Origin: Desulfuromonadales bacterium
GTDB lineage: Bacteria > Desulfobacterota > Desulfuromonadia > Desulfuromonadales > SZUA-540
Assembly (NCBI GenBank): GCA_033549025.1
Contig: JAWSUS010000008.1
Span: 32,001 to 96,000, forward strand
Direction of reading: 5' to 3'
Length of the DNA stretch: 64,000 bases
Numbering within the stretch: the stretch's first letter is position 1; each line of letters starts with the position of its first letter. Positions 23,769 through 56,793 of this stretch are shown here, in pieces. Both the position numbers and the translations under genes were made by a program. Under the pieces are notes generated by a model. It saw only the letters and a program-made list of their open reading frames with translations. It was not told the DNA's origin and ran no database searches.

Positions 23769-26168
23769 TTATGCGTTGATTTCCGAGTGTTCGGGAGAGT
23801 CCTCGCCGACACGGTTGCGGTAAGCGGCCATGAACCCGTCGCGCAAGCGGTCCTCGAGCGACACCTTGCGGTCGTCCACATCGTGGGGCCGGACACCGGC
23901 GTCGCTGCGCAGCGGGGTTTCCGTCGATGCCTTGGCGGCGGGCTTGCCGCCCTGGTCGCTGTCGGCGGGTTTCTCTTCCTTGTCCTTGTCCGCTTTGGCC
24001 GACTTGGGCAGGCGCTCGTAAGCGGCCTCGGTGGCGGCGAAGGCTTCGTCGGACAGTTCGGCCAGGCGTTTCAGCTCGGCTTCCCGGTCCTCCTCGGAAG
24101 CGAAGGAGAGTCCCTGCTTCTCCAGACGGGTGAGCAGCTTCTTAGCCCGGGAGCGGCAGGCGGCCGCCTTTTGTTCGGCTTCCAGTTCCTGGACGCGTTT
24201 CTGCAGCTCGGCGACCTGGGCCTTGAGCTGCCGGTTTTCCTTTTCCAGGTCGGTAACACGGGCAGGATCGCCTTCCTGCTGGGCCGGTTTCTTCTTGGCC
24301 GCTTCGACGGCCTGGTCATCGGTGGGTTTGGTTTTGTCTTCCATCGTGGAATCTCCTTCGGGTTGGGATTGGTCGGGCTGGCTCTGAAGGGACGCCACCT
24401 GCAGAATCCTGGCGTTCTCGTCCGCGCCTTTGCGGTCGAGCAGTCCCAGTCCGGTGAAAGTGACGCCGTGCAGAATCTCGAAAACGGGTTGGCCATTGAA
24501 ATCACGGCCCTTGAATTTGCGCAGGTGGGTGCAGTAGTCGGCCTTGTTCTGGAAGCGCTTGTGGCAGACCGAGCATTCGCCTTCCTGGTAGTCGCACTCC
24601 ATGGAGACCTGGGAGATGATCCCGCGCTTCATCAGCTTGTAGGCCAGCCGGGCGGCCGGGGTGTCGTGGACGTACAGCTCGCCGACGCATTCCACGCGGC
24701 CGCCGTTGTCGTCCTCCAGGTAGTCGGCGGCGACGATGCCACCGACGATGTCGTTGAACTCCTGCGAATGCTGCAGATCGACCTTCTTGTTCACGGCCGT
24801 CATGTGCCGACCGGACAACTCCTCGGCGGTGAAGTGGTCGCCGTTCTTGTTGGTCCCTGTGCGGCAGAGCACGAAGCTGAACTGGGGGTCGCCCGCCGAT
24901 CCGACATCCATGGCCTCGGTCGCGAGGCGTTCACCATCGCCCAGCCGGATGTCCACGGGGATGCTGGTGTGGAAGTTCGCGGCGGCGGCCATCGGAACGG
25001 GTTTCTCCTCCCGCTCGGCGCTGGCCTTGGTCCCGGGAGCACAGACAAACAGACGCTCCTTGGCGTTGGAAGCCTCGCCGTGCTTGGAGGTGATGGCGTA
25101 GTGGTGATCCTTGGACTTCATCCGGCTCTGTTTGCCGAAGGAGCCGATGATCCGCTTCATCTCCTGCTCGTTGGGATAGGCGTGATCGCGGTAGGAAATC
25201 AGCCAGTGCGGAATGTGTTTGGCATTGCCGAGAAAGGTCTGGAAGAATTCGCTGGCGTTGGCCTTGGTGACGGTCTTGTGGTCGGTCTCGTAATACTTGA
25301 CCTTGGTGTCGGCCTTGATTTCGAGCCCTTCCCAATAGGTCATGAGCCCCTCCACGAAGTGGTAGGCCCGCTCGTAGTTGGTGGTCGAAAACTCGGTGGC
25401 GTAGGGCGGATCGAAGTAGGCCAGATCCGCCTTGGCTTTCGGCAGCAGGTCGTTGATGTCCTGCCGGTGGGCCTTGTTCTCCTTGTCGTTGTCGAAGACC
25501 AGGGCGTTGATGCGCTGCAGGTTCTTGCGCAGACGATCCTTGAACTCGTCGGGGGTGTCCTGGCGGCGGCCATAGTCGGTGGACGACGAGAAGTGGCCGA
25601 AGCCGCCTTTGCCACTCATGCAGGTCTTGCCGAGACCGAACAGGGCGATGTCTTTCTTAAAGCCGGAGAGCTTGTCGCAGTTGGCGCGGATGGTGTCGAT
25701 CAGCGCATGGACGCCCTTGGCGAAGAAAATGCCCTTGAAGTTGTCCTGAACGAAGCTGCCCGCCTTGGCGTTGTCGGCCAGGAGTGCCTCGATCTCGTCC
25801 TCGCTCAGGCGAACCGAGTTATTCTCGATGATCGCCTTGGCGGCGTGGTGGCAGTAGCGGAGCCGGTCGTTGGCGATGACCTGGAGGCCCTTGGTCTTGT
25901 ACATGTAGGCCACGACCGCAGACCCCGAAAAGGCGTCGAGCACGGTGCAAACGCCTTCCGGGGTATGCTTCCAGATCCAGTCGACGAGCTTCTGCTTACT
26001 GCCGATGTAGTTGGTGATGTACTTGGGGCGTTTCTCGGGAGGGAGCTCTTCAGGAGCGGACTGTTCGGCGGCCTCGGTCCCAAGCGCATCGGGATCGAGA
26101 GTCAGCGCCGCATCGGCCTCCAGTAGAAACGCCAGCCTTTCCAGGTCTGTGGCGAACAGTTCCATCAA
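23769..26168 (-). CDS. Fusion: DNA adenine methyltransferase (D12 class) + prohead protease-like domain + coiled-coil scaffold
   Basis: NYIGSKQKL, DAFSGS, DPPY; then NKNGDHF..H..VSMEC..CSVC; then long charged coiled coil; single frame of 799 aa. Confidence 0.8.
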   Translation of the reverse strand: MMELFATDLERLAFLLEADAALTLDPDALGTEAAEQSAPEELPPEKRPKYITNYIGSKQKLVDWIWKHTPEGVCTVLDAFSGSAVVAYMYKTKGLQVIANDRLRYCHHAAKAIIENNSVRLSEDEIEALLADNAKAGSFVQDNFKGIFFAKGVHALIDTIRANCDKLSGFKKDIALFGLGKTCMSGKGGFGHFSSSTDYGRRQDTPDEFKDRLRKNLQRINALVFDNDKENKAHRQDINDLLPKAKADLAYFDPPYATEFSTTNYERAYHFVEGLMTYWEGLEIKADTKVKYYETDHKTVTKANASEFFQTFLGNAKHIPHWLISYRDHAYPNEQEMKRIIGSFGKQSRMKSKDHHYAITSKHGEASNAKERLFVCAPGTKASAEREEKPVPMAAAANFHTSIPVDIRLGDGERLATEAMDVGSAGDPQFSFVLCRTGTNKNGDHFTAEELSGRHMTAVNKKVDLQHSQEFNDIVGGIVAADYLEDDNGGRVECVGELYVHDTPAARLAYKLMKRGIISQVSMECDYQEGECSVCHKRFQNKADYCTHLRKFKGRDFNGQPVFEILHGVTFTGLGLLDRKGADENARILQVASLQSQPDQSQPEGDSTMEDKTKPTDDQAVEAAKKKPAQQEGDPARVTDLEKENRQLKAQVAELQKRVQELEAEQKAAACRSRAKKLLTRLEKQGLSFASEEDREAELKRLAELSDEAFAATEAAYERLPKSAKADKDKEEKPADSDQGGKPAAKASTETPLRSDAGVRPHDVDDRKVSLEDRLRDGFMAAYRNRVGEDSPEHSEINA

Positions 26169-30100: not shown

Positions 30101-31717
30101 GACCACGGCCTTGGCGGCGTCTTCGAGGGCCGTTTTCTGTTTCAGGATCAACTTCTGCTTGGCCTCGTCGACCGCCTTTTTCTTGACCGACTCGGCCATG
30201 TCGGCACCGGCCTTCTTCTGCAGCGCCTCGACGAGCTGCTGTTTGTTCTTGAGGATGCCGATGCCGTGCTTCTGTTTGGCCGCCGCGAGTTCCTTGCCCA
30301 TCAGGCCGCTGTGGTCCACACCGGGCTCCAGCTTATCCAGCAGCTCGATGGTCTCCTGTTTGGTCATGTTGAGGGAGATGCCGTTCTCCTTCGCCATCTC
30401 CTTGAGCTGCTGGGCAGTCATGCCCCCCAGCCCCTCGGCGGGAGGGATCTTCGCCATCTGGGCGGCGAGCAGCTTGGCCTGTTTGAGTTCCGCCTGCTTC
30501 AGTCCGAGCAGCTCGACCAGTTCTTCCTTGGTCCGCAGCAGACCGATCTTATGTTCCTTGAGCTTGGCGCTGAGCGCCGCTCCGGCCAGGTCGCCGTGAT
30601 CGATCCCGGGTTCGGCCAGATCGAGCAACTTGATGAAATCGGCCTTGGTCCGGGCGATGGCCACGCCGTTCTGTTTCGCCAGGGTCTGGAGCTGTTTGAC
30701 CGTCAGCGAGCCGAGGTCGGCGATGTCGCCGTTTTCAAAGGCGCTCTTGAGCTTGGCATTCTCCTTGGCTTGGGCGTCGGCCATGCCTTCCAGTACGTGG
30801 GGCGGGAGAATGCAGGCGTCCCCCTGAGATGCCTGTGCGGCTGCCTTGGCGGCCATCTCGCTGCCGCAGACGGTCATCGGCCAAGCCACGATATTTGTGC
30901 AGCGGCAGTGCGGATGCGCGGGTTGCTGGGGGAACTTGTCGATTAGAAAGATCTTGCCGTCCAGGCCGCCGCAGACCGGGCACATGCGCTCGTCCTCCAT
31001 GGCCAGCCATTCCAGCTTCTGGATGCCGACCCGCTCGTGGAACTTGAGCCTGCCCATGTTGTGGGCGCGGAGGACCTCGGTGCGGGCGATCATCTCCATG
31101 CGGTACTGCGCCTTGCTGAACACCCGGCTTCCGGCCTGACGAAAGGAATCCTTGTCGATGATCACCTTGCCCATGTCCCGGACGATGTCGTCGGCTCCCT
31201 TGCCCGTGGCGACGCCGTTCAGGATGGTGCGCTTGATGCCGTCTGCGAGTTCGCGGTGGACGTCACCGGCGAGCGTGAGGTTGTACTGAGCCATGAAGTC
31301 GAGGGCGTTGGTGTCGACAATGGTGAACACATTGGTGGCCAACTTGTCGATGCCCTCGGGCTTCAGGTCGGCGTAGAACGGCAGCGCCGCGTCGGCGAGC
31401 TCTCCGATTCCCTGCTGGATGCCGAGCTTGAAGGAGTCCTTGGTCGTCTTGCGAAAGACCAGGGTCTGCTCCCGCTTGAGCCGCTTCATGGTGTCGTCGA
31501 GTTCGAGCTGGAGCTTTTCCAGCCCCTTGAGCGCGGCGAGCTTGTTGTCCGGCAGGGAGCCGAGGGAGCGGTACTGGAGAATGGCGCGGGCGACCTCGTC
31601 TTCGGCCTGTTTCAGCGCCTGGGTGAGCTGGGCCGTGACCTGGTCGTTGTAGCGGTTGCGGGCCGTCAGGCTTTTCAGGGTGGCGACCTGGATGCGCTGC
31701 TTGAGGTCCGATGGCAT
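27128..31717 (-). CDS. MuF/SPP1 gp7 minor head protein fused to helical repeats, a kinase-like domain and a C-terminal enzymatic domain
   Basis: IARTE...CPVCGGLDG...PAHPHCRC; WLFKP, DWLIANHDGH, IDKGQAF; 1529 aa; follows portal. Confidence 0.85.
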   Translation of the reverse strand: MPSDLKQRIQVATLKSLTARNRYNDQVTAQLTQALKQAEDEVARAILQYRSLGSLPDNKLAALKGLEKLQLELDDTMKRLKREQTLVFRKTTKDSFKLGIQQGIGELADAALPFYADLKPEGIDKLATNVFTIVDTNALDFMAQYNLTLAGDVHRELADGIKRTILNGVATGKGADDIVRDMGKVIIDKDSFRQAGSRVFSKAQYRMEMIARTEVLRAHNMGRLKFHERVGIQKLEWLAMEDERMCPVCGGLDGKIFLIDKFPQQPAHPHCRCTNIVAWPMTVCGSEMAAKAAAQASQGDACILPPHVLEGMADAQAKENAKLKSAFENGDIADLGSLTVKQLQTLAKQNGVAIARTKADFIKLLDLAEPGIDHGDLAGAALSAKLKEHKIGLLRTKEELVELLGLKQAELKQAKLLAAQMAKIPPAEGLGGMTAQQLKEMAKENGISLNMTKQETIELLDKLEPGVDHSGLMGKELAAAKQKHGIGILKNKQQLVEALQKKAGADMAESVKKKAVDEAKQKLILKQKTALEDAAKAVVVPDTPTGYKDFLDAIAKAEQAVSGGTDLPQDLLAAHSKEIALKKQLFQDQVGKLKSTELKTLAKETKVQYWQWANKDELTTLFTETDPAKIKAVQASIDTKHAAWAEKHGGKKKTAPAKPATPKKDPPKPAPQPSPVKPPEAKIGKKGAEFATVDSAWQQKGLPSKFKKTGKAAVGGAHEKEFWTDENGDKWLFKPVGRKDDEFIAFGEEAAYKIGRLIDPHSIEVRTIQLNGRTGSIQKWRTDLRDDFDFRNILPQDLTTIELEQIQREHVVDWLIANHDGHSKQFIRARDGRVYGIDKGQAFKFLGQDKLSLDYHPNGVCGEEEPFYNKVFRAAKEGKVRVDPNPTFRYIQEVEKIADEDYLDLLRPYAEGRFSKDPAGLRHFYDLVLERKHNLRRDFEGYYADVLGDRGFRFDKLSAATGKKKLLSSAEETLVEEARKLGWQGKTLPFDSGDVEDQNALIFTESFKGKKRTVVKMKIRPDTDRRIDEVLRRYVQTAAGEKGQPLVEDSFFPTILDAVKNVNFHVGDGKYNRTKIDKALRLRKKLETLQKSADPKVKEMADHYLKWVKEIEESVDWDRATNGVFDQYLPKLDAQKPKEKPPFKVERGKVTHTKRRIGSGTITVEADDIDNRTLFNHNSRMQDGHQYTVTFEDGTRVRYRPWSDTNLYAQRGELEMILDGDATPGRVEAMLEKLEQLGIDTRVATAENAEQMYLEKLAYIRKTDKSADYKRLQKSLDDRNATTTERVQALRGYWQKELGVQDITQLSGYNPLGEYQAGFLDRDAKGGYRHQFRFDITDEELEKQMKGYSLVHDLTNGESMSGFIDLIMENNGAMVSTVEKMRMGVAPGGMSPVADMQTGGASYFFTRIKKQPASDASPALYFKKQMLRRMDAISYDHDAYGKVIDDYVQRNRGASIDDWKRFSQRHGNETIFKYSVTLLDNIEFIVARSDNERREIIQSFTRRGIKKLPDGRKVEDIVHTPQSWSKRKQ

Positions 31718-33225
31718 CAGCGGAGCTCCCGGCGGTCGATGAAGCGACAGGCCGGGGCGTCGAAGGTGCGCTCGCTGTTGTGGACCCGGCAGTGGTTGGT
31801 GTCAGCAATGAAGTGGCTGCACTCGTCGCACACGGCCGCATCGCCGGTGGACTCCAGGTCGCCCGACCAGACCAATGCCGCCTCCGCCGTGGGTTCATCG
31901 TCCTCGGCCGGAATCCCGAGCATCTTCCGGGCGCGAGGCACGCTGAGGATGCCGGAGACGACCATATCCACCACCGGCTTCACCTGCTTCTCGTCCATCA
32001 GGTCGATCTGCTTACGTTCGGTCTCGCGGTTGGCTGCCTCGATGTCCGGGTCCAGGTCCATCTTGAGCTGAAGGCTGGAGCGGCTGATGAGCTTGCGGTC
32101 GTAGAGTTCGATGAGGAGCTTCTTGAAATCGACCGCGTCGCTTGGGTCGAGGTCGTTGAAGATGAACTGGATGCTTTTGTCGCCGTGGCCGTTCAGCTCC
32201 ATCCAGTCGTCGAACACCCAGTCGAGGAGCTTGCGGGCGGCCTGTTTGATCTCGCGGATCATGACCATCATCTTCTGCATGCTCACCGAGGCGGTGGCGA
32301 AATTCGGGCCGTCTCCGGTCACCAGCGAGCGTGACAGCCCCAGGGCCACCACGATGTCTTCCTTTACCTCTTTGACCTTGTCCTCGACGTTGAGGACCTG
32401 ACCGTCGGTGCCGTGGGTTTCGACGTTGACGTAGAACGGGACCACCAGGCCGCTTTTCATATCCATCTTGTTGACCATGTCGCGAACCTGTTCGAGCATC
32501 CGCTGGTCCGGCATCACCATCTTCTGGCCGAACGCGCCGCCCACCTTGAGCAGGCGAAAGGGCGTGGCCCAGCGCTTGGCGATGGCCTGTTCGGCCCGGC
32601 GGTAGTCGCGCAGCAGTTCGATGGCTTGAAATGCGGGAAGCACGAGGGAGTTACCCCGGGGCGAGAAGGCCGGAGCATCCCATTTGAGGTGGACCACCTG
32701 TTCGACGGGCAGCGGGATGGATTCCCCGCCGCCGGGGGTGTCCTCGGGAAATTGCCGGGCCTCGATCAGCTCGCCCTGGGCGTATTTGACTTTGACCGAA
32801 ACCGGGTTGACGCAGACCAGTTCCTCGATGTCCTGGCCGGACTTGGTGAAGCGCTTGAAGCCGATGGCGTCACCTTTCACCAGGAGCTGAAGAACCATGT
32901 CCTTGATGAATTGCGTGATGTTCAACCGCCAGGCGGCCTCCAGTGCCTGCTCCTTGAGGGTCTCGTCATCGCTGGTGATCTTGATCTCGTCGCCCACGGC
33001 GAAGGTGCGCCAGGAGTTGACGCAATTCTTCACCAGCGGCTCCTCGACGTAGTATTCCCAGGCCTTACGGGCGCGTTCTTCCCAGGTGGCCGGAATAGCC
33101 TCGGCGGCGTTGACCTTGCTGAAGGCCGCCGAGTCGAGCGCGGCCGCTGCGGCCAGCGGCGCGATGACAAAGCCGGTGGTGTCCAGGCTTTCGGGTTGTT
33201 CGTCCTGATGGGCGGTGCTTTCCAC
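31717..33225 (-). CDS. Portal protein
   Basis: Between terminase and MuF; LLVKGDA, VVHLK...PRGNS, GPNFATA; probable GTG start at 33225 with GAGG. Confidence 0.85.
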   Translation of the reverse strand: MESTAHQDEQPESLDTTGFVIAPLAAAAALDSAAFSKVNAAEAIPATWEERARKAWEYYVEEPLVKNCVNSWRTFAVGDEIKITSDDETLKEQALEAAWRLNITQFIKDMVLQLLVKGDAIGFKRFTKSGQDIEELVCVNPVSVKVKYAQGELIEARQFPEDTPGGGESIPLPVEQVVHLKWDAPAFSPRGNSLVLPAFQAIELLRDYRRAEQAIAKRWATPFRLLKVGGAFGQKMVMPDQRMLEQVRDMVNKMDMKSGLVVPFYVNVETHGTDGQVLNVEDKVKEVKEDIVVALGLSRSLVTGDGPNFATASVSMQKMMVMIREIKQAARKLLDWVFDDWMELNGHGDKSIQFIFNDLDPSDAVDFKKLLIELYDRKLISRSSLQLKMDLDPDIEAANRETERKQIDLMDEKQVKPVVDMVVSGILSVPRARKMLGIPAEDDEPTAEAALVWSGDLESTGDAAVCDECSHFIADTNHCRVHNSERTFDAPACRFIDRRELR

Positions 33226-33299
33226 GTGATCCTCTCGGTAGTTTCGGCCATGACAGCCACACATCCGGCCCGTGTGGGCCGAACCCGGCTCGATGCCGG

Positions 33300-35550: not shown

Positions 35551-35745
35551 ATGACCTACGACAGAAACCGCCAGCAGGCACTCAAGGCGTACCGAGAAAA
35601 GCAGGAGAACATCGCCCGGCTGATCGAGGGCATTCGCGGCAAGCTCGAAGCGGACGCGAAGCAGCCGGACATCACCTGGGCGAGCGTCGGCTCCCTCGGC
35701 CACGTCGAGGAACTGCTGCGGGAGCTGGACGAGTTCCTGTCCTGA
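35551..35745 (+). CDS. Small hypothetical protein
   Basis: GGAGG RBS, 64 aa, first gene of the antisense cassette. Confidence 0.65.
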   Translation: MTYDRNRQQALKAYREKQENIARLIEGIRGKLEADAKQPDITWASVGSLGHVEELLRELDEFLS

Positions 35746-35778
35746 ACACACCGGGCCACCGACAAAGGAGACATCGAC

Positions 35779-36153
35779 ATGACCGAATGCACCGTGCATC
35801 AAGCCGCCGAGGCTTTCATCGGCTACCTGCGGGAATCCGGAAAGAAAGAGCGGACCCTTTACACCTACCGGAAGGACCTCGACGCGGTGGAGGCCTTCTT
35901 CGGCGCGGATCGCCAGCTCGCCGAGATCCGGCTTCCCCAGGTCGGCAAGTTCTACAAGTCCGACCTGCTGCTCAAACTCCCTGACGGCAAGGAGCGGGCC
36001 GAGCGCACCATTGCCAAGACCGTCCGGGTGTTCCGCATGATGATGGTCTGGGCCAGGGAGTCGGGGCGCATCGAGGAGCTGCCGCTGCCCAAGAGCACGC
36101 CCATGGGCCACAGCCGGGTAAAGGAGTCCAGCGATGAGCAACCGAACGGCTGA
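35779..36153 (+). CDS. Stand-alone integrase N-terminal (SAM-like, core-binding) domain protein
   Basis: FIGYLRESGKKERTLYTYRKDL...AERTIAKTVRVFRMMMVWA; no catalytic domain. Confidence 0.75.
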   Translation: MTECTVHQAAEAFIGYLRESGKKERTLYTYRKDLDAVEAFFGADRQLAEIRLPQVGKFYKSDLLLKLPDGKERAERTIAKTVRVFRMMMVWARESGRIEELPLPKSTPMGHSRVKESSDEQPNG

Positions 36154-37048
36154 CCTCGATCTGACGGGCGCGACAGAGGCGTTCTGTGCCCGCCTGTCGG
36201 CCGAAGGACGCTCCCCGGCGACCATAGCCGCATACCGCCGGGACCTCGCCCTGGTAGTCCGCGTGGCCGGGGAGCTGGCCCCTGGGATCGTCTGCCGGGA
36301 GGTCACGGTCGGGTTCCTCGACCAGGTGTTCTCCGCCGGGGCGGTCACTGAGAGTGAGCGAGGCCCACGTTCGGCGGCCTCGCTCCATCGGATGAAGGCG
36401 GCGGTGCGGGCCTTTTTTGCCTGGGCCGCCGAGACGGGCGTGGTCGGTGACAACCCGGCCCGGTCCATCCGCATGCATCGGTTGCCAAGAAAGCTGCCAG
36501 TCTTCCTGACTACCGCCGAAAAGAAACGTCTGCTCAAGGAGCTCAAGGGGCGGACCGATTTCTCCACGCTGCGCGACCGCGCCATGATCGAGGTGTTGCT
36601 GGGCACGGGGATCAGGCTTGGCGAGCTGGCCGCGCTCGACATGGATGACATCGACCTCGACGCCAAGCATCTGCGGGTGCGGGCCAAGGGGAATGTGCCG
36701 CAGGTCAAGTTCATCAAGACCGACCTCCGCACATTGCTGCGCCGTTACCTGGCCGAGCGTCGTCGACACGGCCGCCCAGAAATGGAAGCCCTGTTCCTGT
36801 CGAACCGGGACGGCAGACTCTGCCAGCGGCAGATAGCCAACCGGCTCGCCCACTGGCTGCGGAAGGCCGGGATCGAAAAGGAACTGACGCCGCACGGGCT
36901 GCGGCATACCTTCGCCACCCACCTCTACGGCGCGACCAATGACCTGCTCGTGGTGCAGCGGGCCTTGGGGCACCGGGACGTGTCCACCACCCAGATCTAC
37001 ACCCACCTCGTGGACGGTCAGCTCGAGGAAGCCCTCGAACGCCTTTGA
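36134..37048 (+). CDS. XerC/D-like tyrosine recombinase
   Basis: RDRA..TGIRLGEL, KG, HGLRHTFAT, LGH, TTQIY: complete catalytic set. Confidence 0.93.
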   Translation: MSNRTADLDLTGATEAFCARLSAEGRSPATIAAYRRDLALVVRVAGELAPGIVCREVTVGFLDQVFSAGAVTESERGPRSAASLHRMKAAVRAFFAWAAETGVVGDNPARSIRMHRLPRKLPVFLTTAEKKRLLKELKGRTDFSTLRDRAMIEVLLGTGIRLGELAALDMDDIDLDAKHLRVRAKGNVPQVKFIKTDLRTLLRRYLAERRRHGRPEMEALFLSNRDGRLCQRQIANRLAHWLRKAGIEKELTPHGLRHTFATHLYGATNDLLVVQRALGHRDVSTTQIYTHLVDGQLEEALERL

Positions 37049-49772: not shown

Positions 49773-51875
49773 TCATTCGTTGACTATCGGACGGACCTCC
49801 CAAACGATCTCCTCTTCGGTCCGGTAGACCGGTTCGTTGCCGCACTTGATGGATTCCTTCAGGTGGGCAGCCAGCGGCTTGTCGTACTTCTCAAGATACT
49901 TGATGGCCCGGTTTACGGCGTTCCGGAAGGCGTCACGGACGTTCTTTCGCTTGTCGTTGGATTTCCGGAGTTTGCCACCCAAGCCAACAGCCTCGTTGAT
50001 CGCTGTGGTCACCTTTGCCATTTCTTCTTCAAGCCGCTGAATCTCGGCATCGTTGTTTTCTGCCCGTGCGTCTTCAATTTCTCGAAGAAGATCGTGAGCC
50101 GCCTCCCGGTACTGCTCGATAGCCTTGCGGTCGGCGACGAAGCCGGTATCGCCCAACGGAACCCCCTGGGTGACCTGAAAACCGTCTTCGGTTTCATCAG
50201 AGTTCAGAAACGTGTTGCAGGTATTGATGGCGAACCCGCAGACGATCTCGTAGACCGAGGTTTCCTTGTTCGGCCTTGCCAGGAGGAAATTGATGTACTC
50301 GGCCCCTTTATCAACACCCGTCACGAGCACTTCGGCGTTGCCGTTAAAGCGTGCAGCCCAGACACCCCCGCGCTTCCTGAAGTAGTTGTCCGGCTGATTC
50401 TGCTCAACCGGAATGGCGGGGACGGAGATTACCGATCCCGATTCATAGACCGTCCTGAGCAGGCAGTCTCCCGGCAAGGTTCGTTGGCGAATGGCGGTGA
50501 TGTTACGGCCAACCATGGTGTCCATTGCATCGCAGACCTCCTTGGCGTGGCGCTTGTAAAGATCATAAACCTTTTGTGCCACTCTTCCGGAGTTCCCATT
50601 AAGGTAGCGGAAGACCCGACTGACCTCGCTGAATCGGGCGATAAACTGGGTGATGTCGTCCTGCTCGCGTACCTGATTGGCACGCTCCAGGTACGCGGCT
50701 GTCATGATCTTGTCTTCATCCTTGCTTCTGCTTTGGGTGAAGATATCGGCCTTATAGGCTTCCACGGGGTCATGCTGATCCGCTTTTGCCGCAATCATGG
50801 CAAAACGCCTGTCGATGCACTGCGAACACGTTCCGCAATGCGTATGGTGATTGGTCATCTCCCAGGTATGGGTGCAGGTGGTCGATGCCGCGATCATGTC
50901 CTGGCATCCGGCCTTGGTGATCACCTCGATGACACCGGCCTTGGTTTTCCAGATGTAGGGATTCTCAATCGTGAACGGTTCGCCAGCCACCAGGCTGATG
51001 ATTTCCTGAAAGCCTCGGATCACCCTGGGGTGGGTGGTGCGTGTTGCCCGGCCTCCGACTACCTGAGCGCAGACCGGCAGATTCAAACTGATGACCCCGT
51101 TTTCGTAAAAACGGACGCTTTTCAGATTGAGCATTTTTGCGATGGTCGCCCCGATAGACACATAGAGGAAGGATCGGCTGCGCTGGGTGTACTCGTAGTT
51201 CAGTCCCTTGTTCTTGTTGACCCGGACGCCGATGTGTAGCGGGGCGTTTTCCCCAGCCTTGTCGGCAATCATCTTTTCCAGTCGCCGGTGGCGCGTGTTG
51301 AGCTTCGGTGTCGACTTGTGGGTAACAAGGACGACCTTGTGTTTTTCATTCAGAACTTCATCGATGGCTCCCGCCAGCGAGTCCAGCCCACCTGAAAACA
51401 TCACTACCTGTTCCGGATAGCCGAAGAGCCGTCCGTCATCATCAAATTTCAGATATCCCTGGAATGCCTGAGCCTCTTTCAGTTTGACGAACTCGAAGTG
51501 ATAGTTGTCATCAGACAAGAAACCAAGCGTGGAGCGCAGCGCCTGGTGGATATCGTCTCCGTTCCAAAAATCTGGCTTCCGCACCGGGATGATGAAGTGC
51601 AGATCCCTGCGCCAGCCATGGCCAAAAGAATCGACGTCGTCGGCCCCTCGTGGGATGGCCTGATCGGCACTGTAAACGTAGGTGGCGATTTCGAGCAGGT
51701 CCTGGAAAGAATCAGGCACGTCCTTGCTCATCTTTTTGTGGATGTCTTCAATGCGTAGGGTGATCTTGTCCGGCCCATCCTTGCCCCAAAGGCGCAGGCG
51801 CAGATCACGGTCAGGATTTTCTTCAATCCCATCGGTCGGTGCGTTCCCACAGATGATATATCGTTTATCTTGCAT
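49773..51875 (-). CDS. QueC/QatC-like PP-loop protein fused to C-terminal winged-helix domain
   Basis: MFSGGLDSL, QRSRSFLY, TRTTHP, NPY..TK, TC, HCGTCSQCIDRR. Confidence 0.85.
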   Translation of the reverse strand: MQDKRYIICGNAPTDGIEENPDRDLRLRLWGKDGPDKITLRIEDIHKKMSKDVPDSFQDLLEIATYVYSADQAIPRGADDVDSFGHGWRRDLHFIIPVRKPDFWNGDDIHQALRSTLGFLSDDNYHFEFVKLKEAQAFQGYLKFDDDGRLFGYPEQVVMFSGGLDSLAGAIDEVLNEKHKVVLVTHKSTPKLNTRHRRLEKMIADKAGENAPLHIGVRVNKNKGLNYEYTQRSRSFLYVSIGATIAKMLNLKSVRFYENGVISLNLPVCAQVVGGRATRTTHPRVIRGFQEIISLVAGEPFTIENPYIWKTKAGVIEVITKAGCQDMIAASTTCTHTWEMTNHHTHCGTCSQCIDRRFAMIAAKADQHDPVEAYKADIFTQSRSKDEDKIMTAAYLERANQVREQDDITQFIARFSEVSRVFRYLNGNSGRVAQKVYDLYKRHAKEVCDAMDTMVGRNITAIRQRTLPGDCLLRTVYESGSVISVPAIPVEQNQPDNYFRKRGGVWAARFNGNAEVLVTGVDKGAEYINFLLARPNKETSVYEIVCGFAINTCNTFLNSDETEDGFQVTQGVPLGDTGFVADRKAIEQYREAAHDLLREIEDARAENNDAEIQRLEEEMAKVTTAINEAVGLGGKLRKSNDKRKNVRDAFRNAVNRAIKYLEKYDKPLAAHLKESIKCGNEPVYRTEEEIVWEVRPIVNE

Positions 51876-52653
51876 CGGCTCGCGCTCCTTCTTTTAGCTC
51901 GTCCTTCATCTTTTTCAGCGCGTAAGAGGCGAAGCCATTGGAAGACTCCCTGGAGATGTCACCACCTTCTTCGTACCTGTGCTTCGAAAACCAATCTGCT
52001 GAAAACTGCTCGACGATCAGGGACGCCTCTTTACAGTGCGTGTTCAGAGCCTTCTCGAATTGTCCCATTTCATTCATGGTGGCAAAGCGCTGGCCCTCGC
52101 CCAGATGGGTAGCCAGCGTTTTTGAGAGGAAGTAGTTCATGCTCTCGTTGGTCAGCTTGGCGAAGAAAGTCCGCGACAGCTCTCCGAACTCCCGCTTTTT
52201 CCCGAGCGCTGCCAGTGCGGCCCGAACATCATCTGGCCCGGGGGCGAAGAGAGACGGCAGTTTGGGTGAGATGTGCTCTACCAGGGCTCCGACCAATGCA
52301 CGCTGAGACATTTCACCGAGGTCGGATCGGCCACCGTTGGACTCCAATTTGTTATCCAGGGCCTCGGAGACTGCGGCTGCAAGATCGGGAAGGGATGTAT
52401 CCTGCGGCAGGTTGACGCCGAGGGATTGGAGATGCTCGCCGAGGTTCTCCTTTTTTGCGGCAATGGCGAGTTGCGTCATCAACCAGACCGCCTCGGTGAA
52501 CCCCTCATCGTTGAGCACGAAGGTGAATGCTTTATCGGCTGCCCGGATTGTTGCGTTTGCGATTTGGGACACGTCGGCACCGGCCGTGATCAGGCCGACC
52601 ACCTCTTTCCATGCCCTCGACCTCGGAAGGCTTCCAAGTCTGACGTGCCCCAT
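51865..52653 (-). CDS. QatB-like helical partner protein
   Basis: Overlaps the QueC-like gene start; begins MGHVRLG; helical; assignment from context. Confidence 0.55.
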   Translation of the reverse strand: MGHVRLGSLPRSRAWKEVVGLITAGADVSQIANATIRAADKAFTFVLNDEGFTEAVWLMTQLAIAAKKENLGEHLQSLGVNLPQDTSLPDLAAAVSEALDNKLESNGGRSDLGEMSQRALVGALVEHISPKLPSLFAPGPDDVRAALAALGKKREFGELSRTFFAKLTNESMNYFLSKTLATHLGEGQRFATMNEMGQFEKALNTHCKEASLIVEQFSADWFSKHRYEEGGDISRESSNGFASYALKKMKDELKEGARADAR

Positions 52654-53493: not shown

Positions 53494-54018
53494 ATGAATG
53501 AGTTACAGAACGCCGCCACCGGCGGCAAGAATCAGGACCGAACCCGAAACTCGGTCCTTCGGCAGATGGCCCTGCTGCAATCCATGTCCCTGGAGCAGCT
53601 CCGGGAAAAATGGCTCGACCTCTACGGAGAAGAGCCGCCCCAGTACAAAAAGCAATTCCTCATCAAGCGGCTGGCTTATCGCATCCAGGAGCTTTTCTAC
53701 GGCGGGCTGTCCGAGCAGGCCAAGGTCCATCTTCAGCAGGCCGCTAAGGAGGACCCGGTCGCCACTGTCAATCGACGCATCCCAGAGGAGCGGAAATCGA
53801 ACGAGGCGATCCTGCCCGGGACCAGACTAGTGCGGATCTGGAACGACCGGCGCTATGAGGTGATCGTCCTTGCCGATGGCTACGAGTTCGAAGGTCGCAC
53901 ATTCCGGTCGCTCAGCGCGGTGGCCAGGGAGATCACCGGGACGCGCTGGAACGGCAAAGTCTTTTTCGGGCTGAAGAAGGTTTACGGCAGAAAAGCCGAG
54001 GGAGGTTCGGATGCTTGA
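53494..54018 (+). CDS. DUF2924-family protein
   Basis: LAYRIQE..YGGL, PGTRLVRIW, SLSAVAREITGTRWNG..FFGL; AAGGAG RBS. Confidence 0.88.
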   Translation: MNELQNAATGGKNQDRTRNSVLRQMALLQSMSLEQLREKWLDLYGEEPPQYKKQFLIKRLAYRIQELFYGGLSEQAKVHLQQAAKEDPVATVNRRIPEERKSNEAILPGTRLVRIWNDRRYEVIVLADGYEFEGRTFRSLSAVAREITGTRWNGKVFFGLKKVYGRKAEGGSDA

Positions 54019-55597
54019 TAACAGCAATGTCGCGCCGGGCAAGAACAAGACCCTGCGCTGCGCCATTTACACACGCAAGAGTCATGAGGAAGGACTCGAA
54101 CAGGAGTTCAACTCGTTGGATGCGCAACGGGAATCGGCGGAACACTATATCGAAGCCCAGAGGATGCGGGGCTGGACGGCTCTGCCGGATCGCTATGACG
54201 ATGGTGGTTTCTCGGGCGGGAACATGGAGCGTCCGGGGCTACGCCGCCTGCTGGCGGATATAGACGCCGGGAAGATCGATGTGATCGTCGTCTACAAGGT
54301 CGACCGCCTGTCCCGCTCGCTGCTGGACTTCATGAAGATGATCGACCTCTTCAACGAAAAGGGCGTCAGCTTCGTCTCGGTCACCCAGCACTTCAGCACC
54401 ACCGATCCCACCGGCCGGATGTTTCTCGGCATCCTGATTACCTTCGCCCAGTACGAGCGGGAGGTCATCGCCGAACGTATCCGGGACAAGGTGGCGGCAG
54501 CCAAGCGCCGGGGAAAATACTGCGGCGGCGTGCCCATCCTCGGATACGACGTCGACCGGGATAACAAGAAGCTGCTGGTCAACCCGGATGAAGCCAGGAC
54601 GGTGCAGTACATCTTCCGCCGCTTCATCCAGATCGGCTCGGCCAAGAAGCTGGGCCAGGAATTGAACGAACAGGGGTACCGCACCAAGGCCTGGACCACC
54701 AAGAAAGGCAAGGTGCGCGAGGGCTCCGAATGGAACACCGCCCACATCTACCGGCTGCTCAACAACCGGATCTATATCGGCGAGATCGCCCACAAGGACC
54801 GCAGCTACCCCGGCGAGCACGAAGGGATCATCGACCGGGCGACCTGGGACAAGGTTCAGGCCATCCTGGAGGACAACAAACCGGTCAAGGTATCCATGGC
54901 CAGAACCAAAATGGTCGCCCCGCTGAAGGGTGTCATCCGCTGCGGCCACTGCGGCTGCTCGATGGGACCGACCTACGCCCGCAAGAACGGCCGCCACTAC
55001 ACCTATTACATCTGCCAGAAGGACAGCAAGCGGACCGTGAGCCGGTGCCCGCTCAAGCGGATTCCTGCCGGGGATATCGAGCAGGCCGTGGTCGAGCAGT
55101 TGAGCGCGGTGTTCCGCACACCGACGCTGGTGGCCAAAACTTACTTCGCGGCTCGGGACATTGAGCAGGTGGAGCGGGAGCGGCTGTTCAAGCAAAAAGC
55201 CCAACTCGAGATGGAGCTATCACAAGCGCGGGAGCAGGCACTTGAACTGATGAAACCCGGCAACGATCAGCCGGGCAAATCCGAGATGCTGACGACCGTC
55301 AACCGTCAGGCGGTCGAGCTCTCGAAACAACTGACCCATGTGAGCGAGCGCTGCAGAGCCTACCAGGGGAACAGCATCACGGAACAGGATGTGTCGGAGG
55401 CCTTCCAAAATGTCGAGGGCTTCTGGGAAGACCTTTTCCCGGTGGAGCGGAATCGCCTCATCCGCCTCCTGGTGGACAAGGTGGAGATCCGCGAGACTGG
55501 AATCGACATGGAGCTGCGCACCAACGGGCTGACAACGCTCATCGCCGAGCTGGCCGGTCTGGCATGCGAAGTCACTGAACGGAGAGCAAGCCGATGA
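54011..55597 (+). CDS. Large serine recombinase
   Basis: CAIYTRKS, YDDGGFSG, DRLSRS, recombinase domain, CGHC zinc ribbon. Confidence 0.95.
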   Translation: MLDNSNVAPGKNKTLRCAIYTRKSHEEGLEQEFNSLDAQRESAEHYIEAQRMRGWTALPDRYDDGGFSGGNMERPGLRRLLADIDAGKIDVIVVYKVDRLSRSLLDFMKMIDLFNEKGVSFVSVTQHFSTTDPTGRMFLGILITFAQYEREVIAERIRDKVAAAKRRGKYCGGVPILGYDVDRDNKKLLVNPDEARTVQYIFRRFIQIGSAKKLGQELNEQGYRTKAWTTKKGKVREGSEWNTAHIYRLLNNRIYIGEIAHKDRSYPGEHEGIIDRATWDKVQAILEDNKPVKVSMARTKMVAPLKGVIRCGHCGCSMGPTYARKNGRHYTYYICQKDSKRTVSRCPLKRIPAGDIEQAVVEQLSAVFRTPTLVAKTYFAARDIEQVERERLFKQKAQLEMELSQAREQALELMKPGNDQPGKSEMLTTVNRQAVELSKQLTHVSERCRAYQGNSITEQDVSEAFQNVEGFWEDLFPVERNRLIRLLVDKVEIRETGIDMELRTNGLTTLIAELAGLACEVTERRASR

Positions 55598-56016
55598 AAA
55601 TGAAGCCGACCATTACCGTAGCCGACAACGGCAACCTGCAGATCCACATCCCGATGCTGATCCGGCGCATGCGTGGCCGCAAGACGGTCATCGCGCCCCA
55701 GGCCCTGGACGGAGCGATCTCTGGTGCGCAGGAGCCGGTGCAGTCCGCCGTCCTCCAGGCACTGGCAAGGGCCTTTTCCTGGGCCGACATCCTCGAATCC
55801 GGCCAGATCAAGTCCATCAGCGAGCTTGCCCGTACCCTCGACGTCGATGGCTCGTATGTGGCCCGCATCCTCAAGCTGACGACTCTGGCCCCCGACATCG
55901 TAGAAGCCCTGATCAACGGCGAGGAACCCAACGGGCTCTCGCTGGCCAAGCTGACCCAGACCTTCCCTGAAGACTGGGTCGAGCAGCGCCGCCAGTTCGG
56001 CTTCGCCACCGACTGA
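55594..56016 (+). CDS. Recombinase-associated small HTH protein
   Basis: SISELAR...SYVARILKLTTLAPDIVEALING...W.EQR. Confidence 0.75.
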   Translation: MKMKPTITVADNGNLQIHIPMLIRRMRGRKTVIAPQALDGAISGAQEPVQSAVLQALARAFSWADILESGQIKSISELARTLDVDGSYVARILKLTTLAPDIVEALINGEEPNGLSLAKLTQTFPEDWVEQRRQFGFATD

Positions 56017-56042
56017 CGACCGGACCGGAGACCACCCCAGAG

Positions 56043-56073
56043 AGCCGACCATCAGCGTCGGCTTTTCTTCTTT
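56043..56073 (+). terminator. Intrinsic terminator
   Basis: AGCCGAC-N7-GTCGGCT followed by TTTCTTCTTT. Confidence 0.7.
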
Positions 56074-56437
56074 GGGGGGGGCAGGAAACCGGAGTTGACC
56101 ACACTTCTTTTCATGGGCGAAGCGGGTGATTTCGAAAAAAACGTCCGGTTGCGGCATCGAGCGATGACCTAAGACAACCGCCCAAAACGGCAACAAGCCG
56201 CAAACCCATATCAATCAAGGATGTAGCTTCCCGGACGAGCTTCGGACTTGGTCCGGAGAAAACAGAGAATCAGGGGCCAAACAGAGAAAGAAAGGCGGGA
56301 GGATGGGGAGAATCGATGGTGCGGAGAGGTGCTTTGGAAAGATGTGAAACGGGCGCAACCCCTTTAGAAACAAGGGGAAAAAGAAAACCCGTCACCCCGG
56401 AGAATGACCCCAGAGAGACGGGTTTGTCTTTTCTAAA

Positions 56438-56793
56438 TGGTGGAGGTGGCGGGAATCGAACCCGCGTCCGAAAACCTTTCACGTAAGGCTTCTACATGCT
56501 TAGTCGGTGTTTTGAGTTTAACCCGGAACCGCTCCCACAGACAGGATTTGAACCGGGCGAGTCTGCTTTATTTCGCCTCTGCACCGCAGTCACTTGCAGA
56601 GACTAGCCCACTAAATTGACGTCTCAGACCCTACGCGGGCGATAAGGAAAGAGACGAGGCAGCAATTAAGCTGCCAGTGCGTACGAAACGTCAGAGTCGG
56701 CGTTTGTATTGTTGCCAGTTTTTTAACGAGGCCCACTGGCGTCCCCGGCATGCCACCTTCGCTTCCGATCCCCGTCGAAACCTTGACACCCCC
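56438..56793 (-). ncRNA. ssrA: tmRNA
   Basis: 5' GGGGGTGTCAAGGTTTCGAC, 3' GGTTCGATTCCCGCCACCTCCACCA, tag ORF ADSDVSYALAA*, downstream of smpB. Confidence 0.97.

Follow-up and report, generated by a model that had tools for sequence, protein, structure and literature searches.

A prophage of a Desulfuromonadales bacterium carries in its head module a gene in which a D12-type DNA methyltransferase (MTase) is joined to the prohead protease and scaffold. The gene lies on the minus strand of the window, i.e., the whole stretch of 64,000 nucleotides (nt) analyzed here (GenBank assembly GCA_033549025.1, contig JAWSUS010000008.1, positions 32,001 to 96,000), where it runs in one unbroken frame from an ATG at 26165 to a stop codon at 23769–23771 and encodes a protein of 798 amino acids (aa; P0001). 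It is moderately probable, as judged from sequence, that the MTase is loaded into the prohead, freed and used to methylate the phage DNA against restriction, at packaging and/or at entry.

The preliminary description of this DNA reported an uninterrupted frame of 799 aa in the protease/scaffold slot, with the MTase motifs NYIGSK, DAFSGS and DPPY followed by a protease-like domain (NKNGD, a histidine and VSMEC) and a coiled coil. All of this stands: the frame has 799 aa when read from an alternative upstream TTG at 26168 and 798 when read from the ATG at 26165, which has GGAG 7 nt 5' of it; every motif is found in the translation (NYIGSK at 52–57, DAFSGS at 77–82, DPPY at 252–255, NKNGD, the histidine as H466 and the serine of VSMEC as S521); a long helix (635–683) follows the protease; and domain search and structure models together give a D12 methyltransferase, a prohead-protease fold and a coiled-coil scaffold. 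In the structure model, linkers of low confidence connect the MTase, protease and scaffold domains. The title of PHROG 27806, a full-length model of 798 positions called 'DNA methyltransferase', indicates that databases contain the fusion protein and label just its first domain.

Contigs from four public runs pass over the gene without insertion, deletion or joint, and in three of the four they bridge the MTase–linker junction, so that the check across this junction proposed in the preliminary description speaks against a join made by sequencing error. The best 120 of 497 homologs match the protein over 100% of the query at 97–99% identity. An assembly error joining two genes was considered as a candidate explanation and is ruled out by the full-length homologs, the one-frame loci and the unbroken contigs. 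Conservation of the fusion in relatives, likewise proposed as a check, was also found. Among the 84 different viral loci compared, 6 break off ahead of the protease and 3 ahead of the MTase; in 74 of the other 75, which are informative, the MTase and protease share one frame, the exception (L127) being split. The same holds for 77 of 80 genome loci from many phyla, the other 3 being cut by contig ends; since these were the best 80 of 155, ordered by likeness to the fusion, this count is biased, and a protease-only search of 50%-identity clusters gives a fairer estimate: of the 44 nearest clusters, 20 have an MTase, as do 19 of the 34 in which the protease domain is whole. Pairwise identities of the MTase (paralog A, see below) and the protease are correlated across 33 proteins (Spearman 0.68, 0/999 permutations), and this tracking extends down to 34% identity for the MTase and 39% for the protease. 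By such comparisons the fusion is an old one.

The hosts carrying the fusion at 98–99% identity include Desulfobacterota, Verrucomicrobiota and Gamma- and Alphaproteobacteria, and those at lower identity Armatimonadota, Acidobacteriota, Planctomycetota, Chloroflexota and Nitrospirota, many of both being metagenome bins that are possibly mis-binned; Desulfovibrionaceae, Desulfosarcina, Ectothiorhodospira and Syntrophus are among the carriers. One group of loci (L135–L149, L161 and L167) has protein copies that are 94–99% identical, most of them 98–99%, across several phyla, with isolates from two phyla included. Near-identical copies in several phyla suggest a very broad host range, with the qualification that bins could be mis-assigned. 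Among 40 searched relatives of the source host there is one further complete copy, the 3 members of its own genus having none, a sparse presence that fits a mobile element. The flanks of the fusion copy in one further genome (G027) did not align with the source contig.

The MTase domain is matched by PF02086 at residues 53–293 (89.4 bits against a cut-off of 22), and its S-adenosylmethionine-binding motif precedes DPPY. A Foldseek search with the model of this domain places Mcbe1, an N4-cytosine enzyme, at the top, with E. coli Dam, T4 Dam and DpnM also among the matches; N6-methyladenine, as suggested by the Dam structures, is thus one of two candidate products. A sequence search against solved structures returned only E. 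coli Dam (E 0.24). By the NCBI cut-off for TIGR00571 the MTase is not a Dam (24.8 against 114.85 bits). DPPY is retained in all 145 MTase domains compared, and the median ratio of nonsynonymous to synonymous substitution rates (dN/dS) is 0.04 for the MTase, as compared with 0.02 in the protease, 0.11 in the scaffold and 0.21 in the linker, over the 67 of 91 pairs that passed a filter on dS, the pairs being non-independent in that all share the window sequence. Such values indicate an MTase under purifying selection. Its closest free relatives in sequence (30–37% identity) are Type II restriction-modification methylases located by AlwI-family, 'type IIs' or DpnII-family nucleases; unlike these, the fused gene has no cognate nuclease adjoining it and is flanked by head genes and by two small genes that match no family. 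As regards k-mer composition, the strongest avoidance in the prophage region is of CTAG, which is nearly missing (observed/expected 0.09), and of GTAC, which is low (0.65), TCGA being high (1.38).

The protease domain, modeled with a predicted local distance difference test (pLDDT) score of 89, aligns by VIA-align with the varicella-zoster virus protease at Z 12.2 (root-mean-square deviation 2.8, 115 aligned), with T4 gp21 at Z 11.4 (2.8, 129) and with the human cytomegalovirus protease at Z 8.3, the next unrelated row standing at 6.5; what had been described as a protease-like domain thus has the assemblin/gp21 fold. Its matches in BFVD are annotated prohead proteases and phage G gp19. Foldseek against the PDB gave nothing at E ≤0.001, the list being headed by herpes proteases and T4 gp21. 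H466 and S521 are invariant in 24 of 24 aligned proteins and at least 90% conserved in 60, and are the putative catalytic residues, a role assigned from the PF04586 match and knowledge of the family. C531, C534, C545 and H547 are also invariant and form a probable zinc site. The domain stays below curated cut-offs (PF04586 at 461–528, 17.4 against 21 bits; TIGR01543, 18.9 against 59) and, on sequence, is placed in the vicinity of phage G gp19 (31%) as a divergent subfamily.

The conserved internal start of the gene is Met608 (24344), from which the scaffold alone would be made and which the preliminary description overlooked. Each of the 69 full-length genes, and each of the 18 clusters at 90%, has a start codon with a Shine-Dalgarno sequence at this position. 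The codon varies among ATG, GTG and TTG, a sign that initiation rather than methionine is under selection; in all 18 clusters, pairing with the anti-Shine-Dalgarno sequence is stronger here than it is for the 5' start. The gene shows the features of a nested protease/scaffold gene, namely an internal start with a ribosome-binding site after the protease, a helical, coiled-coil C-terminus and a position just upstream of the capsid genes, and likely also yields the scaffold alone from Met608. The preliminary description had instead proposed that protease and scaffold could be supplied from an internal ATG at 24992 (Met392). The GGAGGAG reported 12 nt 5' of it is there; as a feature of the family this start does not hold up, a start codon with a Shine-Dalgarno sequence being found in 2 of 18 clusters and 29 of 69 genes. 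In 8 of 57 close relatives this position reads CTG or CTT, and Met392 appears better read as the first residue of a cleavage-like motif, MAAAA. Six RNA runs include the stretch as contigs of flat depth, which may be DNA, and give no sign of transcription there; a scan for promoters and terminators stayed at chance level.

The cleavage-like motif, [LMIV]-x-[AST]-x-Ala, has five copies in P0001 (15, 28, 392, 414 and 752), none inside a folded domain; two of these are the similar peptides LGTEA (28–32) and LATEA (414–418) that had already been described as bracketing the MTase. Its pattern was set by eye on the same proteins in which enrichment was counted: in 30 cluster representatives, the linkers hold 73 copies against 25.8 in shuffles (z 9.5) and the last 60 residues 29 against 10.4, with the MTases themselves not enriched (27 against 26.5). 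Where the MTase comes first, the motif stands before it in 34 of 34 leaders and in the following linker in 31 of the 34. As the pattern was fitted by eye, other head proteins are better tests. In the MuF-like proteins (22 clusters, at least three short ones of which lack the motif at this place), it comes directly after the MuF domain in 14 of 14 long ones, as MAAKA in that of the window, and the leader of the portal protein carries it in 7 of 7 clusters. The final Ala is kept at 44 of 48 C-terminal sites, 26 of 30 pre-protease sites (18 gapped rows being excluded), 14 of 14 MuF linkers and 7 of 7 portal leaders; the corresponding figures for a Glu before it are 9/48, 19/30, 0/14 and 0/7. The preliminary description had the protein cleaved after Glu, which fails as a general rule; the conservation of the Ala and the recurrence of the motif in MuF and portal linkers suggest that the protease probably cuts after the final Ala. 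The MuF-like protein is likely a second substrate and a second cargo carrier, and the portal protein a possible substrate. When the protease was folded together with the peptide of the MuF linker, the result was weak (0.34 against 0.01 for the best control, contacts agreeing to at least 65%, partner pLDDT 41); 51 of 78 solved pairs attain this mark, as do 2 of 108 mismatched ones, and at this level passes are wrong more often than not. The cargo part of the MuF-like protein consists of short helical repeats, a candidate HipA/PI3K-like kinase at about 700–960 (a lead from the Atlas) and another, unnamed domain.

Among relatives, the front of the fusion gene can be seen from its sequences to be a variable cargo slot. 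The architectures found are a protease-scaffold without cargo, forms with a single MTase or with two, and forms in which an 80-aa WEETENE domain stands once or twice ahead of, between or behind the MTases. Two MTases stand in one frame at 30 of 80 genome loci; the second forms a clade of its own in a quick MTase tree (Shimodaira–Hasegawa-like approximate likelihood ratio test 100) that includes one protein having only this type B, which makes A and B old paralogs, the source copy having paralog A only. As the MTase tree is a quick one and the FastTree phylogeny of the protease has many open forks, no order of gains and losses is claimed. The WEETENE domain (in L062, L064, P0126, P0131, P0140, P0141 and others) usually begins directly after the motif Ala; Pfam gave no match for it and the Atlas only unnamed viral clusters. 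In two proteins (P0135 and P0157) the slot before the protease holds a different small domain (GW.GL..SCA..., KLPY..II.GKL.VVW.GV). In more distant proteases (P0184, P0185, P0203, P0206, P0256 and P0270), the protease lies near the N-terminus and is followed by very long unannotated C-terminal parts of 956–2462 aa.

A protease-scaffold must enter the prohead to function, so that cargo at its N-terminus very probably enters too. The strong internal ribosome-binding site would give many short scaffolds and the weaker 5' site fewer full-length copies, which would co-assemble through their scaffold tails, as in nested protease/scaffold genes. Cuts at A19 and A32 would then remove the leader, a candidate propeptide or capsid-targeting piece, those at A396 and A418 would free the MTase (aa 33–396, 41 kDa, isoelectric point 8.7), and one at A756 would part the scaffold from the last 42 residues, which hold the predicted capsid-binding end (helix 770–786). 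Being too big to exit with the peptides, the MTase would be retained in the head, where it might methylate the genome during packaging while its cofactor can still diffuse in, and/or be ejected with the DNA to act on entry; methylation in the head at packaging is slightly favored over entry, co-ejection being possible too. This reading draws on two precedents: in T4, fused enzymes can undergo packaging and processing, act on DNA in the head and be passed on to the next host cell (PMC9026906), and P1 ejects antirestriction proteins, DarB among them, along with its DNA (PMC12810830, PMC5512222). A wider proposal, possible if doubtful, is that the protease-scaffold gene of this phage family serves as a cargo bay with a Leu-x-small-x-Ala code, and that restriction-modification methylases (two in the ancestral state, each for one strand or site) in every head methylate the genome in the capsid or on entry, away from the methyl-directed nucleases of the producer, helping a near-identical phage (98–99%) to settle in several phyla.

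Several observations weigh against a packaged, protective MTase. The motif is loose and was defined post hoc; it lies inside 31 of 47 MTase domains and is also enriched in the protease cores (z 3.6) and likewise in the 120-aa protein. Counted over entire sequences, it is not overrepresented in MuF (115 against 116) or in the portal (17 against 14.7), and it is lacking after the MTase in three of the 34 proteins. In the source copy, the Shine-Dalgarno sequence at Met392 is usable (−6.9 kcal/mol, the 5' start having −6.6), so that this start may be used there and a protease-scaffold free of the MTase made. The MTase is absent from 15 of the 34 whole-protease clusters, some of which may be 5'-truncated gene calls, and from all 106 more distant matches listed by the protease-only search; on these sequences it is dispensable in the wider protease family. 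Broken copies occur, namely the split L127 and two loci (L162 and L178) with a partial MTase in another frame, and others are shortened (L189, L173 and L212); five of the 77 one-frame genome loci are damaged or shortened. K-mer bias in the prophage revealed no specific MTase target (observed/expected: GATC 0.92, CATG 0.93, GGATG 0.92, GCATC 1.03; host similar).

A further such point leads to the strongest rival. Late free methylases of the Hia5 type protect progeny DNA in Mu-like prophages (PMC3299994), and one of these would do so here without any fusion. The fusion might then be a polyprotein that just gives late expression, the MTase being cut off or working in the cytoplasm of the producer on phage DNA under replication, and not being retained in virions; methylation before release would by itself protect the DNA right from the onset of the following infection, and relatives without the MTase exist. 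This is nonetheless rather unlikely: the fusion is kept at protease identities as low as 39%, where a simple stop and start would suffice, and T4 gp21 does not turn active until the prohead is finished (PMC9958956), which, if true here, means that the MTase would be freed inside. Phages and plasmids also show no stand-alone full-length MTase relative above 35% identity, with the limit that a search of shorter proteins listed closer ones, several marked partial and most on short contigs.

Less probable still is a packaged MTase with another job, e.g., marking a packaging or regulatory site, setting early transcription or the lysis-lysogeny choice, or methylating host DNA once ejected. Packaging is reportedly assisted by adenine methylation, and a part in it is predicted for the methylases of ParB-terminase loci (PMC4738411). 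In addition, an Mrr-like methyl-directed nuclease adjoins the prophage, and a single fixed specificity could not match the restriction systems of many phyla. Against these points, the nearest free relatives are the restriction-modification methylases beside Type II nucleases, and loss of the MTase in many lineages opposes an essential packaging role. Two-domain methylases serve asymmetric sites, and the tandem A and B pairs resemble such enzymes, which also speaks against another job. That the MTase is a neutral passenger without a role, or the gene a chance fusion or assembly join, is scarcely credible, for a few broken copies stand against hundreds of separately assembled ones, contigs with no joint, the low dN/dS, the retained DPPY and the motif-flanked borders.

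Each part of the proposed system has a precedent, be it in nested protease/scaffold genes, virion-borne methylases or polyvalent proteins. Nested protease/scaffold genes are known as C/Nu3 of lambda and I/Z of Mu. One or two whole enzymes preceding the protease set the fusion family apart from them; in the motif here, a small residue stands two positions ahead of the Ala and Leu or Met four ahead, and P0001 has no copy of it between the protease and the scaffold start. The herpesvirus UL26/UL26.5 gene is likewise of the nested kind (PMC4498786), and the likeness extends to a protease of the same fold, an in-frame internal scaffold start and a probable cut after Ala: pseudorabies virus assemblin is described there as having Ala specificity and a maturation site near the C-terminus, 37 residues from the end as against the 42 predicted here.

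As anti-restriction cargo borne in the head, here predicted from sequence, the fused MTase parallels the methylase-domain protein DarB of P1, which is described as a separate MTase–superfamily 2 helicase–LPD36 protein loaded via DarA/Hdf (PMC5512222, PMC12810830); the fusion MTase is unlike it in being of the D12 type and covalently tied to the protease-scaffold, and neither the domain search nor the model showed a helicase domain in P0001, so that the DarB architecture is not matched. The fusion is also comparable to polyvalent and MuF-fused effectors, in which unrelated enzyme domains share one virion-linked chain for splitting by a peptidase, assemblin-like peptidases being rare at their C-termini (Iyer et al. 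2017, PMC5512222). The hub domains of polyvalent proteins (the zincin metallopeptidase, the SWI2/SNF2–MTase dyad and ArdC) were found neither in P0001 nor in the 54 proteins scanned, and a D12 MTase on an essential protease-scaffold gene differs from polyvalent proteins as described in that source. In its predicted working, the fusion resembles the T4 internal and SPN3US ejection proteins, which are cargo of the prohead and lose their propeptides to a protease with this fold that cuts at a short motif; those proteins come from separate genes and are cut after Glu (PMC9026906, PMC10052503). SPN3US gp245 reads A-X-E, and with Ala as P1 the small residue of the fusion motif takes P3, the position that gp245 reads (PMC10052503). 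A D12 methylase on an essential protease-scaffold gene was not described in the literature covered, the supplementary architecture lists of PMC5512222, which might include it, and subscription journals lying outside that scope.

If the proposal is true, it amounts to a new route by which an anti-restriction enzyme gets into the virion, covalently fixed to a head-building protein and hence in every particle. Cultured lysogens allow asking whether a methylase can modify DNA inside the capsid or at ejection, and the predicted Ala-specific motif supplies exact N-termini to seek. A second question thereby opened is how one prophage lineage spans several phyla, and the natural cargo slot could take foreign enzymes into phage heads.

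Table 1. The fusion gene, its parts and the neighboring head genes (window positions).
Feature	Position	Strand	Basis
Whole gene: leader, D12 methyltransferase, prohead protease, scaffold; 798 aa	23769..26165	-	frame; PHROG 27806 full length; 497 homologs
N-terminal leader, aa 1-48: conserved helix 7-15, LEADA (26109-26123), LGTEA (26070-26084)	26022..26165	-	alignment, model
Methyltransferase domain, aa 49-376, D12 type, paralog A	25038..26021	-	PF02086, Foldseek, DPPY conservation
DAFSGS; DPPY	25920-25937; 25401-25412	-	within methyltransferase domain
Linker with MAAAA (24978-24992) and LATEA (24912-24926)	24888..25037	-	pLDDT <50 for aa 380-424
Prohead protease domain, aa 427-590, assemblin/T4 gp21 fold	24396..24887	-	VIA-align, BFVD, invariant columns
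H466; S521	24768-24770; 24603-24605	-	invariant columns
Internal ribosome-binding site AAGGAG, 8 nt before ATG 24344 (Met608)	24344..24358	-	69/69 genes
Nested scaffold, aa 608-798, 191 aa: helix 635-683, helical bundle, LRSDA (23898-23912), C-terminal helix 770-786	23769..24344	-	
Major capsid protein, HK97 fold, 287 aa	22512..23375	-	PHROG 2522; NF042927 above cut-off
MuF-like minor head protein, 1529 aa	27128..31717	-	PF04233 at 160-275
Portal protein, motif in N-terminal leader (PLAAAAA)	31717..33264	-	7/7 clusters

The gene order of this contractile-tailed prophage is terminase, portal, MuF-like protein, two small genes, the fusion gene, a 120-aa gene, capsid, and tail and baseplate genes, and none of the genes of the head module was seen broken. 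Replication genes and a serine recombinase, which adjoins the transfer-messenger RNA (tmRNA) gene at 56438, belong to the prophage as well. A duplicated tmRNA end that would mark the attachment site was not found on the contig. Directly beyond the tail-fiber end of the prophage, 7–14 kb to the left of the window (L133, 5071–12510), lie the Type I restriction-modification genes hsdM, hsdS and hsdR and the gene for the Mrr-like nuclease; in related virus records, Mrr is present in 1 of 5 and the N6_Mtase family in 3 of 5, so that neither is a fixed part of the element. Between the terminase and replication modules, a tyrosine integrase gene and two small genes stand on the opposite strand (35551–37048, plus). 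The region at 53494–56793 holds a DUF2924 gene, the large serine recombinase and a small gene beside the tmRNA gene, and at 49773–52602 (minus) a QueC-family gene matching QatC (PADLOC, E 2.5e-53) is accompanied by a gene for a 245-aa protein.

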